In this document: positions 26,232 through 30,236 of the stretch, one piece after another
Position numbering within the stretch: the stretch's first letter is position 1
Layout: every line of letters begins with the position of its first letter
Assembly: GCA_963844475.1 (NCBI GenBank)
Contig: CAWJOL010000005.1
Location: 40,805-104,804 of the forward strand
Source: an uncultured Solirubrobacterales bacterium
Lineage (GTDB): Bacteria; Actinomycetota; Thermoleophilia; Solirubrobacterales; Solirubrobacteraceae
Direction of reading: 5' to 3'
Length of the DNA stretch: 64,000 bases
Notes under the pieces: model-generated
Seen by the model: the letters and a program-made list of their open reading frames with translations, nothing else
What the model was told of the DNA's origin: nothing
Databases searched by the model: none
Translations under genes and position numbers: made by a program

Positions 26232-26702
26232 TCACCCGCCGAGGCGGTCAGCCGCGCGGGGCTTGACCCGGAGCGAGCGCAGCACGTGGCCGAGCTCGGC
26301 GAGCTGGCGGCGGCGCCCGGAACGGTCTCCGGCCAGCACCACGTAGAGGCACAGCGGCCGTCCCGCCTGGGTGAAGAACTGCTGCGTTCCCACCTGGCCC
26401 GGGCGCGGATGCGCGAGGGCGCGGGCGGCGAATCTCGTCGGATCGAGCGGCAGCTTGAGCCGCGGCGCGGCGAACAGGCCCGCGCCGGGGTTGAGCCCGG
26501 CGCCCGGCACATACTCGGTCAGCGCGAGAAAGCAGGCGCCGCGAGGCATGCGGCCCGTGCTGCGATCGCCGAACTCGCCATCGTTGATGGCCAGCGTGTA
26601 ATTGCCGGCGTGCAATGTGGCCGCGCCATCGTGACGGCTGAACACGCGGCCGCTCCACCCACGCGGCAACTCGATCTCGATTCCGTGGGCGTCGATTCTC
26701 AC
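26232..26702 (-). CDS. Hypothetical protein, last gene of the mau-like operon
   Basis: GTG at 26702 overlaps the upstream stop; 156-aa soluble protein RIDAHGIEIELPRGWSGRVF... Confidence 0.7.
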   Translation of the reverse strand: MRIDAHGIEIELPRGWSGRVFSRHDGAATLHAGNYTLAINDGEFGDRSTGRMPRGACFLALTEYVPGAGLNPGAGLFAAPRLKLPLDPTRFAARALAHPRPGQVGTQQFFTQAGRPLCLYVVLAGDRSGRRRQLAELGHVLRSLRVKPRAADRLGG

Positions 26703-27367
26703 GCGGCACCGACCAGAGCCAGGGCCAGGAGCACGACCAGCAGCACCGGCGTGAGCCGAGCGACGGCCCCGCGCCAGTGCTCGAGCCGTCCATGCAGGGC
26801 AAGCAGCTGATCGGGGCGGCGGATGCGCGCGCCCAGCAGCGGCGTCAGCCCCCGGACCGCGCCGTAGCAACCGAGCACCAGCGCCCCCCGGCCCGGATCG
26901 CCGGTCAGCAGGGCCGCGACGACCGCCACGTAGGTGGCCGCACTGCTCACTACCGTGCTCAGACCGAACCCCAGCTGCGCGCCGAAGCCGAGGCCGTACA
27001 CCCAACCTCGGTACTCGTCCAGCCAGCGCTCGTTGACCTGGCGCCGTGGGCCGGGTACACGGCCCGGCAGCAGGTCGAGGATCACCGCGACGGCGAGGGC
27101 GACGCCGAGCACGGCCAGCCGAGCCCGGGAACCCACCGCGTCGCCCAGGATCAAGCTGCCGAGCGCCCCCAGAGCCGCTCCGCTCACCACGCCGGTCAGC
27201 ACCGCGCCGAGCGCGAATGCGCTCACCGTCAGCGACCACCTCGATCGTCGGCCCCGCTCGCCGAGCGGGGTGATGCTGGCCAGCATCGACTCGCCTCAGG
27301 GAGACCAGGCCGCCGCAACGGCCCCGAGGACCGCGGCCAAGCAACCGAGGACGACGAGTTCGCTCAA
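26699..27367 (-). CDS. MauF-like membrane protein with in-frame UGA at codon 24 (candidate selenocysteine)
   Basis: TTG start 1 nt after the upstream stop; MSELVVLGCLAAVLGAVAAAWSP-UGA-GESMLASITPLGER continues in frame into the 195-aa ORF; RRQVNERW and GAQLGFG MauF-like motifs. Confidence 0.75.
27252..27298 (-). promoter_or_regulatory. Candidate SECIS/recoding element after the UGA
   Basis: UGA + 8 nt, then GAUGCU-GGCC-AGCAUC hairpin, then CCCCGCUC-GGC-GAGCGGGG hairpin. Confidence 0.5.
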
Positions 27368-27368
27368 T

Positions 27369-28047
27369 TCAGTCTGGGCGGCCGGGGTAGAGGCTTGGAT
27401 CGCCCGGCGTGATCCCCGCGGCGGCGAGCGTCGCTTCGACGCGGGCGGCGCGTTCGGTTCCGGACCGTCCCGGCTCGGCCTCGCGGTGATCCTCGATCGC
27501 GTCGCTGACCAGCGAGGACAGCGCCTGCCAGGTTGTGGCCACCCCCTCGCCGCACACGCTCCCGTCGACGAGCACGAAATACGGCGCCCCCGGCACGCCA
27601 TAGTCCTCCCAGGCCTGCGAGGACATCACCACGCTGACCCCCTTTGGGGCGAGGCGGCGCAGACGTGACGGCCGCTCCCGCTCAGCCCCCTGGGTCACGA
27701 TCAGCGTCTGTACCCCGGGCGGTAGGCGCTGCTCGCCCAGTGTTTCCCAGAACCCGGCACAGGTGCTGCATCCGCTGGTCAGAAAGGCCAGCAGCGTCGG
27801 CGTCGATCCGGCCCCCCCGAACGAGAGTGAGAGGGCATCTCCGCTGGGCGTCGGTCCGGCCACCGGCGCGGCGACCCTCGCGGCCCCGGTGCGGTGAACG
27901 AGTGGCGGCTCGGGGATCGCCGGCAGGGCAGCGTCGCCGGCGGGACCGATCCGCCGCAGCAACTCGGCGTGGCTGCGCAAGCAGGCCCGCAACGAGGACG
28001 ACCAGCAACACAAGCAGCACGGTCTCCACGGACACGACCGCCAGCAT
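27369..28047 (-). CDS. MauD-like membrane-anchored thioredoxin (1 frameshift)
   Basis: N-terminal TM from ATG 28047; LLAFLTSGCSTC CxxC; YGVPGAPYFVLVD cis-Pro loop. Confidence 0.8.
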
Positions 28048-28668
28048 CAGACCCCGCCGCCCCCAGGGACTTGGACGGCTAGCCCTTCCAGGCAGCCGGC
28101 CTCGTGATTGCAGGTGAAGTCGTCGACCATCTCCGTCCCGTTGCAGTTCATGCCATCCACGGTGGACGGGTTCTGGCAGATCACCAGCCGGCAGACGACC
28201 TCGGTGGTGCCATGAACCTGGGTGTTGCACTGCCCGTAGCGGAAGTGGTTGCAGTCGACCCGGCGCCGACCGCAGTCCCCCTGGGCGCATTGGCATCCGC
28301 CAGGAAACTTATGCCCGGGGATGCGGTTGCAGTCCACGTAATACCGCACGCCCTCGGCCTGGCAGAGGCCGCCTCCCTGGTAGTTGGTGCATTTCCACCA
28401 GCCGGCCACGTAGGTGTCCCGGGGACACGTGTTGCGCCCTCGCTCGATCTCGCAGCAGAACGCGGTGTAGCCGTCGGTGCACTTGCCCGAGCTGCACTGG
28501 GTCGGGGCGCACCACGGCCCAGGCGTCCCCCGGCCTGACCAGGTATCGCACCGGCGCGACGGCAAAGGCCGAGCCCGCCAGCGCCGCCTTGGCCAGAGCT
28601 CCGCGGCGCGACATGCGCCGCTCCAGCAGGCCGCCGAGCGACACGGCAAGGCGCTCACTGACGTTCAT
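28047..28668 (-). CDS. Tat-exported 18-cysteine protein in the mauA position (1 frameshift in a C run)
   Basis: MSRRGAL Tat signal with AWA cleavage site; mature region CTDGYTAFCC...GWWKC...YYVDCN...CNHFRYGQCN. Confidence 0.8.
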
Positions 28669-29186
28669 TGCGCGCTCCATGCGCTCCACGCCTGGGGGAG
28701 CAGCGTATAAGCGAGGACGGCCGCGTAGGCGGCGCCGGCGATTCCCACGCTGAGCACGGCCGCGGTGGGGACCGGCCGAGTCAGCACCCAGCCCACCGAA
28801 TGGGGCGCTTGGAGCGCGCATGCTGCAGCCACGATCGCCAGCATTCCGCTGATCATCGCCTGCGCCGACGAGGCGGGCGAATCGCCCTGCGCCTCGCCAA
28901 AGCAGCCGCATGAGACCCGCCGCCGGGCCAGCAGCGCGGTGATCAGAGCGAACAGTCCATAGAGCAGAGCCAGCGCCAGGGCGCCGGCCCGGGTGGGCGC
29001 CACGGCACAGACAGCGCCAAGCGCGATCTCCGCCGCGGCGAACATGCGCACATGCCCGGCGCGGGCGGGGACGCCGAGCGTCAGCAGCGCACGCACCGCC
29101 CCGGCCGGCGCGCGCAGCTTGGCCACTCCGGCCACGAGCAGCACGGCCGCGGCGAGCAGAAACGGAGGTGTCAGTCCCGCGCTCAT
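28665..29186 (-). CDS. MauE/DoxX-family redox-associated membrane protein
   Basis: AGVAKL, AEIALG, SCGCFG motif. Confidence 0.9.
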   Translation of the reverse strand: MSAGLTPPFLLAAAVLLVAGVAKLRAPAGAVRALLTLGVPARAGHVRMFAAAEIALGAVCAVAPTRAGALALALLYGLFALITALLARRRVSCGCFGEAQGDSPASSAQAMISGMLAIVAAACALQAPHSVGWVLTRPVPTAAVLSVGIAGAAYAAVLAYTLLPQAWSAWSAQ

Positions 29187-29189
29187 GTC

Positions 29190-30144
29190 TCAGGCCTCTG
29201 CCTTCGCGCGCTCCAGGATCGTCGTGGCCGCGCTGGCAGGATCGAGTTCCCGGGAGACCACTCGGTCGAGCAGACCCTGGACCGCCGGGTCCTGGCTCAC
29301 GGCTGCCTCAAGCTCGCGTCGCATCCGGTAGCTGGCGATGGCCAGAACCTCGTTCATCAGGTTCCGCCGGCGCCGCTCGGACAGCGTTCCCTCCTCCTCG
29401 ATATAGGCCCGGTGCTCGGACAGCTTCTGCGCCAGCTCCTCCACGCCCTCCCCTCGGCCGGCCTCGGTCCTGACGATCGGGACCTGCCAGCCTTCGTGCG
29501 AGCCCAGCGCCAGGATGCCCTTGATCTCACGGATCATCGTGTCGGTGAGCGGATGATCGGATTTGTTGACCACGATCACGTCGGGGATCTCCATCACCCC
29601 GGCCTTGAGGGCCTGAATCGAGTCGCCCGATCCGGGCATCAGCACCAGCACCACCGTGTCGGCATGATCGATGATGTCGACCTCGGCCTGTCCGACGCCG
29701 ACGGTCTCGAGCATGACGATGTCCCGGCCCGAGGCGTCCATCAGCAGCGCCGCCTGGAGCGTCGCCTCGCTCAGTCCACCCAGCGCGCCGCGGTTCGCCA
29801 TCGAACGTATGAACACGCCAGGAGTCGAGAAAGTGTTCGCTCAAGCGAATGCGATCTCCCAGCAGGGCACCCTTGGTGAACGGCGACGATGGGTCGATCG
29901 ACAGCACGGCGACCGTCCGATCACGCTGGCGCTCGAGCTTGGTCAACGCCCCCAGCAGCGTCGACTTGCCGACGCCCGGCGGTCCGGTGAAGCCGACGAT
30001 CGAGGCCTGGCCGGTGTGCGGATAGACCTCGCGGACCAGATCCCAGCCCTCGGGCTTGTCGTTCTCGACCAGCGAGATGGCGCGGGCGAGGGCCCGCTTC
30101 TCCCCGGCGAGCAGGCGCTGGGCCAGTGATTGCTCATCTGCCAT
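29190..30144 (-). CDS. meaB: Acyl-CoA mutase-associated GTPase MeaB (1 frameshift)
   Basis: TGPPGVGKST, IDPSSPF, LGDRIR, ETVGVGQAE, VNKSD. Confidence 0.95.
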
Positions 30145-30236
30145 AAGGCCGAGCAATCATGCCAGGGCCTCCCCTCGCCGGTCTCCATTGGCGCCCGAGG
30201 TGTAGCGGCGGCGGTTCTCGGGGTAACCTGGAGGTG

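Follow-up and report, generated by a model that had tools for sequence, protein, structure and literature searches.

A predicted selenocysteine codon in the gene of a MauF-like membrane protein from Actinomycetota

The locus and its reading frame

The window, the 64,000-nucleotide stretch of an uncultured Solirubrobacterales bacterium analysed here (GenBank assembly GCA_963844475.1, contig CAWJOL010000005.1, positions 40,805 to 104,804 of the forward strand), carries on its minus strand an operon with the conserved gene order MauE, Cys-rich exported protein, MauD-like, MauF-like and a 156-aa ORF. The MauE-family membrane protein (28665..29186; Pfam PF07291, E 4.5e-12) has a C-G-C-F-G motif in its translation, and its gene holds the same position in the related loci L157-L160. 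The Cys-rich exported protein, the presumed client of the system, is encoded at 28047..28658; the N-terminus of its translation is disturbed by an assembly frameshift, and the intact relative at locus L158 has an RR-type signal. The MauD-like thioredoxin-fold protein (27369..28013, exact start uncertain) contains a C-S-T-C motif and gives a weak match to TIGR02661; in BLASTP it resembles Paracoccus MauD (E 5e-8) with the CxxC residues aligned. At the other end of the operon the translated, conserved 156-aa ORF (26232..26702), which has no match in Pfam or NCBIfam, begins with a GTG that overlaps the stop codon of the MauF-like gene.

The MauF-like gene itself occupies 27367-26699 on the minus strand and would be 222 codons long, 27 more than in the gene-caller version, because an internal UGA would encode selenocysteine. 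The mauD-like ORF stops at TGA 27371-27369 and, one base further, the TTG at 27367-27365 opens a frame which is translated as L-S-E-L-V-V-L-G-C-L-A-A-V-L-G-A-V-A-A-A-W-S-P, reaches the UGA as codon 24 (27298-27296) and continues as G-E-S-M-L-A-S-I-T-P in the same frame as the called 195-aa ORF, which runs from ATG 27286 to the stop TGA at 26701-26699. An earlier, sequence-only reading had put forward this extension from the TTG through W-S-P, the UGA and G-E-S-M, and translation reproduces it exactly, with 222 residues in total. Most relatives have a start codon at -23 relative to the UGA, and two show in-frame stops at -27; at locus L158 the MauF-like start is indicated by an ATGA in which it overlaps the stop of the gene before it. 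That gene callers truncate the protein, as had been claimed, is borne out by the databases: 115 of the 120 best matches start at the methionine after the UGA, as do, by sequence classification, 83 of the 150 best cluster representatives. In public protein sets the UGA forms are present only in N-terminally truncated form, as "hypothetical proteins" devoid of the first helix and the predicted active residue.

The assembly contains indel errors, which leave selD split over three frames and MeaB divided. In the sequencing runs listed the organism is poorly represented (best share 0.22), and no RNA run containing it is among them. The contigs of 99% identity stop short of the UGA, and coverage of this codon comes from the contigs of relatives alone; these soil metagenome sequences (90–95% alike) pile up exactly on 27252-27309 with the UGA unchanged, and the only variant in this region among the differences listed is a wobble-preserving C to T change in a stem.

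Conservation of the UGA, its hairpins and the selenocysteine machinery

A protein search which reads through stop codons gave, for 16 of 24 close relatives, matches from query residue 2 to 221 that contain a single TGA. The UGA form with both coding flanks conserved occurs in 67 of the 121 genomes sampled from the genus and, spread over many families, in 68 of 401 genomes drawn evenly from the Actinomycetota (ca. 17%). More than 130 genomes share the UGA, the frame on either side of it and both downstream hairpins, and the 23 codons upstream of the UGA are conserved at the protein level. When the homologues were tabulated at codon 24, TGA was found in the bacterium's own clade and in many other families and TGT or TGC in others; in distinct loci the counts are 41 for TGA and 83 for TGT/TGC, with S-P-x-G-x-S-M as the common motif. 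The sequence-only reading had seen no second PC-type cysteine, and in a 47-sequence alignment residue 24 is indeed the only invariant Cys/Sec column, Cys9 and Cys165 varying among relatives. On a quick tree the Sec/Cys label changes at least four times, three of the changes being forced by well-supported branches. The surroundings are conserved as well: among 40 UGA-form loci the MauD-like gene lies immediately upstream in 39, the 156-aa ORF directly downstream in 38, and the gene of the Cys-rich protein within 1.5 kb in 36.

Two hairpins follow the UGA at the positions first proposed for them, 27287-27272 and 27270-27252. Hairpin 1 (27272..27287, minus strand) is a 16-nt palindrome, GAUGCU-GGCC-AGCAUC, which starts 9 nt past the UGA; hairpin 2 (27252..27270, minus strand) has an 8-bp stem, CCCCGCUC/GAGCGGGG, and a GGC loop at +34, so that 33 nt separate the UGA from the loop. 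Both occur in the 41 distinct UGA forms, and an analysis of covariation revealed that both covary and are specific to the TGA form. In the two-helix structure both partners have changed at 6 base pairs, and the values seen for it were not attained by any of 500 shuffles. The 5-bp core of hairpin 1 is paired in 98.5% of the cells of the 41 UGA forms, two of which carry a compensatory CG to GC exchange, and the hairpin folds with a mean energy of -6.8 kcal/mol in UGA forms versus -2.1 in Cys forms. Hairpin 2 has compensatory changes in 5 of its 8 pairs and a mean energy of -14.1 kcal/mol in UGA forms versus -9.8 in Cys forms; synonymous positions in its stem are frozen while the third base of the loop varies, and the apical loop begins with GG in 36 of the 41 forms. 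Folding of a 45-nt segment yielded -21.0 kcal/mol for UGA forms versus -13.9 for the 83 Cys forms, and against synonymous recodings the mean z is -1.3 and -0.16, respectively. Taken by itself the 57-nt RNA of the present locus has a folding energy of -24.5 kcal/mol, while shuffles give -22.2 +/- 2.8 (z = -0.85); this is not beyond chance and is usual for RNA so rich in G+C. Rfam gave no match around the UGA at E<=10. The bSECIS consensus places 16–37 nt between the UGA and the apical loop, with G in the first loop positions. With its covarying stem, a loop which lies 33 nt past the UGA and is mostly GG-led, and its absence from the Cys forms, hairpin 2 is most likely the SECIS apical stem-loop.

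The window had offered no sel genes, but selA, selB, selD and tRNA-Sec(UCA) are all present elsewhere in the source genome, and the machinery tracks the TGA form. In the genus sample selA was found in 62 of 67 UGA-form versus 5 of 12 Cys-form genomes, and in the phylum sample in 63 of 68 versus 4 of 13, against a background of 267 of 401; that is, in 93% of UGA-form genomes in both samples and in 31–42% of those with the Cys form only. In three related species selA-selB lies 1.3–2.1 kb downstream of the MauF-like gene on the same strand. FdhA and SelD of the source genome have no in-frame UGA.

The conserved UGA, the Cys homologues, the covarying hairpins peculiar to the UGA form and the Sec machinery all support the recoding that had been postulated, and it is very probable that the internal UGA encodes selenocysteine at the one invariant Cys position of the MauF-like protein. 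By analogy with other bacteria, SelB loaded with Sec-tRNA(UCA) would be brought in by the stem-loops that closely follow the UGA, namely hairpin 1 (+9) and hairpin 2, whose GGN loop is at +34; one of the two would presumably be bound by SelB. The whole of 27367-26699 is thus predicted with good confidence to be a single gene for a 222-residue, six-helix, MauF-homologous membrane protein whose codon 24 is read as Sec.

Relationship to MauF and a possible role

The W-S-P-C-G motif of MauF had been named in the sequence-only reading, and MauF of Paracoccus denitrificans PD1222 (plasmid 1, NC_008688; locus L167:11737-12570; mauFBEDACJG) does carry T-W-S-P-C-G in its first helix. The label "MauF-like" is likewise justified by hhalign, in which the family profile matches MauF with 99.3% probability (E 3.6e-20, 179 columns). 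Identity between MauF and the family is 28%, the Sec column (27296..27298, W-S-P-U-G) falls on the MauF cysteine as it does on the TGT/TGC of the homologues, and the blocks P-x-R-R-x-Q-V and G-x-x-Y-G-x-x-L-G are shared; like mauF, the MauF-like gene also adjoins homologues of MauE and MauD. The differences are that residue 24 is UGA/Sec rather than Cys (AWSP-U-G versus TWSPCG), that the N-terminus is ca. 55 residues shorter, that the operon is without MauB, MauA, MauG and amicyanin genes, and that its presumed client is an unrelated Cys-rich protein with no detectable similarity to MauA. A search of the 75.6%-complete genome for the methylamine dehydrogenase subunits (PF06433, PF02975), run without a positive control, found neither. 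Since these genes were not found and the Cys-rich protein is unlike MauA, we regard the gene as a MauF homologue but not as a methylamine-utilization gene. Searches (tblastn) of a plasmid collection with the MauF-like protein and MauE gave no match. The small subunit of methylamine dehydrogenase is disulfide-rich, and to our knowledge the role of MauF in the biogenesis of this enzyme has never been explained. Where selenocysteine occurs, it nearly always stands in for a catalytic redox cysteine. Its predicted presence here thus points to the WSPCG cysteine as the working, and likely active, residue of MauF.

Neither the 222-aa nor the 195-aa form matched a Pfam or NCBIfam family, the protein of the window having no Pfam match at E<=1, and the 195-aa form retrieved only unnamed actinobacterial clusters, some of them DsbD_2, in a protein-cluster search. 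An AlphaFold2 model of the 222 residues is of high confidence (pLDDT 93.8, pTM 0.90; 95–96 in the N-terminal helix) and shows helix 1 interrupted at residues 20-22, immediately ahead of Sec24. The six predicted helices and the S-P-C-type residue at the helix-1 break recall the transmembrane domain of CcdA/DsbD (PF02683 DsbD_TM, PF13386 DsbD_2), as does the modelled mid-membrane interruption of helix 1 and apparently of helix 4. The best Foldseek match is the NMR structure of CcdA (5VKV), a weak one (E 0.11, TM 0.34), and below the gathering score 17 of 47 relatives match DsbD_2 and 5 of 47 DsbD_TM, the best of them with 22.2 bits versus a cut-off of 24.9. VIA-align gave only generic six-helix bundles (Z<=6), and a profile search against PDB sequences only chance matches to GAPDH. 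CcdA and DsbD, however, form their internal disulfide from two cysteines, in helices 1 and 4, and the MauF-like family has one conserved Cys/Sec.

We suggest that Sec24, which would take the place of the only cysteine invariant in the family (W-S-P-C/U-G) at the break in predicted transmembrane helix 1, may provide the reactive selenol, or thiol in the Cys forms, of a membrane thiol-redox relay. Its partners would be the MauE-like (C-G-C) and MauD-like (C-x-x-C) proteins, and its substrate the exported Cys-rich protein encoded between them. Granted Sec decoding, we give such a role about an even chance. A complex prediction for the Cys form of the MauF-like protein with its MauD-like neighbour returned a score of 0.00, no verdict and uninformative either way.

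Selenocysteine might also be inserted and have no part in a relay, lining instead the pore of a LysE/DsbD_2-type transporter where it would bind a metal, a metalloid or a small sulfur or selenium compound, and leaving MauE and the MauD-like protein to handle the client alone. This would fit the one invariant Cys/Sec, where CcdA and DsbD need two, the subthreshold DsbD_2 matches, the labels of sulfite exporter TauE/SafE or MFS permease which some sources attach to homologues, and the mostly transporter-like nature of the membrane selenoproteins in a recent catalogue (MerT-like, YeeE/YedE, SO_0444; PMC13188914). Against a transporter speaks the tight and widespread linkage, with translational coupling, to genes for CxxC thioredoxin-fold, CxC membrane and Cys-rich exported proteins, and there are no metal-handling genes in the operon. 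The origin of the homologue MauF, in a cluster whose product includes a disulfide-rich small subunit, also argues against it, and we consider transport rather unlikely.

Other readings of the UGA and the place of the family

The UGA might be a true stop, in which case the locus would encode two products, a hydrophobic micro-peptide of 23 residues and a 195-residue protein from ATG 27286, the latter possibly translated by re-initiation, the split pair assembling post-translationally. Gene callers choose ATG 27286 everywhere, only three codons separate it from the UGA, and a GAGG 8–11 nt before it makes independent initiation conceivable. In the Cys-form homologues, however, coding is continuous through the UGA position, and their methionine at +4 is invariant too, so that it is not an adaptation for initiation. 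A split would moreover remove the one invariant reactive residue of the family and leave the hairpins without a role, and it would not explain why the UGA form tracks selA and in some genomes adjoins selA-selB. We regard it as very improbable.

Also very improbable is readthrough that bypasses the Sec pathway, near-cognate decoding giving a Cys or Trp protein, at least in the UGA-form genomes without detectable selA. There are ten of these in the two samples, and in four (G006, G136, G307 and G368; completeness 75–96%) tRNA-Sec was not found either. But the selA-less genomes are fragmented MAGs, 6 of the 10 retain tRNA-Sec, which in the three exceptions from the phylum sample lies near a contig end, and the conserved hairpins are confined to the UGA form. 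TGA is also an ordinary stop in the source genome, that of the MauF-like gene and its upstream neighbour included; a reassigned genetic code was rejected on the same grounds. Finally, a sequencing error or an inactivating TGC to TGA change in a pseudogene copy, as might be feared from the frameshifts elsewhere in the assembly, the single substitution that separates the two codons and the coverage of the UGA by relatives' contigs only, was rejected and is effectively refuted by the same TGA in more than 130 independent genomes of many families and by its persistence in the soil-metagenome contigs over 27252-27309.

A 2026 catalogue lists 119 selenoprotein families (PMC13188914, Table 1; May 2026), among them as membrane proteins a MerT-like mercuric transport protein, YeeE/YedE, the rhodanese/DsbD fusion TsoB, the SO_0444 efflux transporter and SaoP. 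Like the MauF-like protein these have Sec where homologues have Cys and their prediction followed the same Sec/Cys and SECIS reasoning (PMC13188914), but none of the 119 is a MauF, DsbD_2 or CcdA-like family with S-P-U-G. In the literature on selenoproteins with CcdA, DsbD, MauE, MauF or Acidimicrobiia we found no description of a MauF-like family. A 2026 preprint on Actinomarina contains selenoproteins predicted by deep-Sep which match K07090, a membrane protein, and which might belong to the present family. The MauF-like proteins are predicted, from sequence comparison, to be a widespread family of integral-membrane selenoproteins absent from the inventories and model libraries checked.

More tentatively, and with less confidence than we have in the relay, Sec-MauF could be the membrane core of a selenium-dependent disulfide-maturation system (MauE, MauD-like, MauF-like and a 150-aa partner) for Tat-exported, very Cys-rich proteins in about one sixth of the Actinomycetota. 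It could also be a main reason for their keeping the Sec machinery, because in some species selA-selB lies in the same neighbourhood and FdhA and SelD are without UGA. If this is true, the availability of selenium in soil would be linked to how an abundant class of secreted Cys-rich proteins matures.

Reading frame and homologues of the probable selenoprotein gene

The gene lies on the minus strand of the window (27367-26699). A candidate start, TTG (27367-27365), is found one base past the TGA stop (27371-27369) of the mauD-like ORF and opens 23 hydrophobic codons ending in W-S-P. An in-frame TGA (27298-27296) follows as codon 24, and then G-E-S-M-L-A-S-I-T-P in frame with the 195-amino acid ORF which gene callers begin at the ATG at 27286 and end at the TGA at 26701-26699. 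This is the frame proposed in the sequence-only reading, and re-reading gave the same coordinates. In most extracted loci the start 23 codons before the TGA is GTG, ATG or TTG, and in relative L158 its ATG shares bases with the preceding gene's stop (ATGA); the N-terminus is pinned in two loci by an in-frame stop at -27. In one locus (L029 of genome G024, 1495-2634) no stop separates the frame from the ORF that follows, giving 380 amino acids, through either a natural fusion or a fault in the assembly.

A protein database search gave 2284 homologues. Of the best 120, nearly all have 195-196 amino acids and 115 start at the Met following the UGA, so that gene callers do shorten the protein as had been suspected. 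An exhaustive profile search yielded 2979 cluster representatives at E≤1e-10; among the best 150, 83 begin at this Met, 58 carry an S-P-C-G motif, and of the other nine, seven too are full-length Cys forms, with variants of the motif. Whole genomes were searched using the 222-residue protein as query with stops read through. Residues 2 to 221 were matched, with exactly one internal TGA, in 16 of 24 close relatives. Full-span matches with one TGA occurred in 67 of the 121 genomes sampled from the genus and, across many families, in 68 of the 401 drawn evenly from the phylum. These two tallies, and the corresponding ones for selA given below, include genomes flagged as unpublished (G041, G046, G075, G137, G183, G254, G223, G448 and G466); without these the UGA-form count falls by one for the genus (G046) and by three for the phylum (G137, G183 and G254). 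The consensus of the extracted UGA-form loci is W-S-P-TGA-G-x-S-M-L-x-S-I-x-P, and the upstream helix is kept as protein.

Codon 24, when tabulated over the homologues, is TGA in many and TGT or TGC in others with the same motif, which reads F-S-P-C-G-Q-S-M-L in two genomes of the window's genus and W-S-P-C-G-L-S-M in another family. At least 464 Cys loci were found by a Cys-pattern scan of species genomes, in the Solirubrobacteraceae, Conexibacteraceae and many Acidimicrobiia. In an alignment of 47 sequences the sole invariant cysteine position is the Sec/Cys column, the window protein's Cys9 and Cys165 being variable; the absence of a second PC-type cysteine had been remarked on earlier. In a maximum-likelihood tree built quickly from 122 sequences with this column masked, unevenly sampled and with Cys loci drawn from the Cys-pattern scan, the Sec/Cys label changes at least four times, three of the changes being required by well-supported branches. 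A Cys clade is sister to the window's Sec clade, both within a larger Sec group. Among the Cys-form loci L053-L126, most Acidimicrobiia forms are of 255-290 amino acids (Sec forms, 217-232) and have a C-terminal extension missing in Sec forms; in roughly half of the Cys-form loci no Mau-like neighbours occur within 4 kb.

RNA structure downstream of the UGA

Both palindromes reported from the sequence are present: hairpin 1 (27287-27272; stem GAUGCU, loop GGCC) and hairpin 2 (27270-27252; 8-bp stem, loop GGC). The window RNA is G+C-rich and, taken alone, folds no better than shuffled sequences (z -0.85), so the case rests on comparison. Within the genus all synonymous positions of the hairpin-2 stem are frozen (codons CCG CTC ... 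GAG CGG), the loop codon ends in C, A or T, and an ACC to ACT change retains a U.G pair. In more distant UGA forms a hairpin of different sequence occupies the same position, e.g. CUCCCC-GGUC-GGGGAG, UCCCCGU-CGUGC-ACGGGGA and AUCCGCUC-GGU-GAGCGGAU. When a single two-helix structure was counted over 41 distinct UGA forms, 98.5% of cells were paired in helix 1 and 78.7% in helix 2, the remainder of the latter being in a shifted register; six pairs showed changes on both sides, values reached by none of 500 shuffles. The structures are specific to UGA forms. The 45 nt past the UGA fold with a mean of -21.0 kcal/mol, compared with -13.9 in 83 Cys forms, and are stabler than synonymous recodings (mean z -1.3 versus -0.16), with both hairpins contributing to the difference. 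The loop of bacterial SECIS elements lies 16-37 nt after the UGA with a G early in the loop. The hairpin-2 loop, which starts GG in 36 of the 41 UGA forms, fits this consensus.

Soil-metagenome contigs from four runs, representing relatives rather than the window's organism, stack exactly on the 57-nt stretch 27252-27309, with summed depths of 133 and 320 in two runs and 5-15 beside it. The only change among the variants listed there is a wobble-preserving C to T. This stretch is the gene's most conserved part at the nucleotide level across soil relatives.

Selenocysteine machinery

The window's own genome, G000 (3.72 Mb in six contigs, 75.6% complete), carries, outside the window, selB, selA, a tRNA-Sec with anticodon UCA and selD, the last in three pieces in different frames (G000:C3:381953-382887). 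The breaks in selD are likely assembly indels, in keeping with the earlier remark that the assembly is error-prone. No in-frame TGA was found in the matched N-terminal part of selD, nor in the matched parts of FdhA (G000:C1:180761-183786); so the usual main Sec user, formate dehydrogenase alpha, seems to be of a non-Sec type in this genome. Co-occurrence of the UGA with the machinery was borne out: selA is present in 62 of 67 UGA-form versus 5 of 12 Cys-form genomes in the genus sample, and in 63 of 68 UGA-form versus 4 of 13 Cys-only genomes in the phylum sample (background 267/401), and since related genomes are non-independent we place no weight on p-values. Ten UGA-form genomes lack a detectable selA; six of them still have tRNA-Sec and four show neither. 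In the three of the six that belong to the phylum sample, the tRNA-Sec is no more than 2 kb from where its contig ends. In three related species (L164 of G042, L165 of G052, L166 of G062) selA, accompanied in two by selB, is located 1.3-2.1 kb downstream on the same strand of a module encoding the Cys-rich protein, the MauD-like protein, Sec-MauF and an unknown ORF. We consider it very probable that Sec is inserted at codon 24 in a SelB-dependent manner.

A MauF-, CcdA- or DsbD_2-like family with S-P-U-G is absent from the 119 prokaryotic selenoprotein families of a May 2026 review (PMC13188914). A 2026 Actinomarina preprint mentions predicted selenoproteins with matches to K07090, which could be the same family or another.

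Protein family, operon and proposed role

The window protein has no Pfam or NCBIfam match; 17 of 47 relatives match DsbD_2 and five match DsbD_TM, all under the curated cut-offs. An AlphaFold2 model from the 47-row alignment (pLDDT 93.8, pTM 0.90; N-terminal helix 95-96) has helix 1 broken at residues 20-22, directly before Sec24, and a second broken helix at about 135-142. The best Foldseek match, a weak one, is the CcdA NMR structure (E 0.11, TM 0.34), and an exhaustive structural aligner found generic six-helix bundles only. MauF has no Pfam model. The protein from the mau cluster on plasmid 1 of Paracoccus denitrificans PD1222 reads T-W-S-P-C-G-Y-S-S, with the WSPCG motif named in the sequence-only reading, and matches the family profile with an hhalign probability of 99.3% (E 3.6e-20, 179 columns). 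On the strength of this profile match, and since the Sec column aligns with the MauF cysteine, we regard the window protein as a MauF homologue; a more distant CcdA/DsbD-like relationship is unproven.

The gene is fourth in a row of five minus-strand genes, some of which overlap. The first, second, third and fifth encode, respectively, MauE (PF07291, C-G-C-F-G), a Cys-rich protein (28047-28658), a MauD-like thioredoxin-fold protein (C-S-T-C; E 5e-8 versus Paracoccus MauD) and a 156-amino acid protein of no known family. Upstream of MauE, as in relatives L157-L160, is a gene for the MeaB GTPase (29190-30156) in two overlapping ORFs (29527-30156, profile positions 1-91; 29190-29816, positions 96-268), probably split by an assembly indel. 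Of 40 UGA-form loci, 39 have the MauD-like gene directly beside the MauF-like one, 38 have the downstream ORF and 36 the Cys-rich gene. The Cys-rich protein has an RR-type signal in intact relatives; here its N-terminus is out of frame relative to that of L158, in which the RR signal precedes the mature domain. Within the genus this mature part shares 70-84% identity; it belongs to no Pfam or NCBIfam family and has no detectable similarity to MauA. Neither methylamine dehydrogenase subunit family was found in the incomplete genome G000 in a search run without a positive control. In the intact MauD-like protein of L158 (4222-4923), R-S-H-A-E-L-L-R-R comes after an N-terminal membrane anchor, and under the positive-inside rule its thioredoxin domain could face the cytoplasm, unlike that of periplasmic MauD.

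CcdA works through an internal disulfide, whereas the MauF-like family has a single reactive residue. This speaks against a CcdA-type mechanism and leaves room for a transporter or ligand-binding role, which we consider unlikely. Sec in nearly all known selenoproteins replaces catalytic redox cysteines, and the partners here are thiol-redox proteins. Both points favour a selenol-based redox relay, to which, given decoding, we would assign about an even chance. SelB would insert Sec at codon 24, the Sec24 selenol would form transient selenenylsulfides with cysteines of the MauD-like or MauE-like proteins, and the relay would act during maturation of the presumed Cys-rich client.
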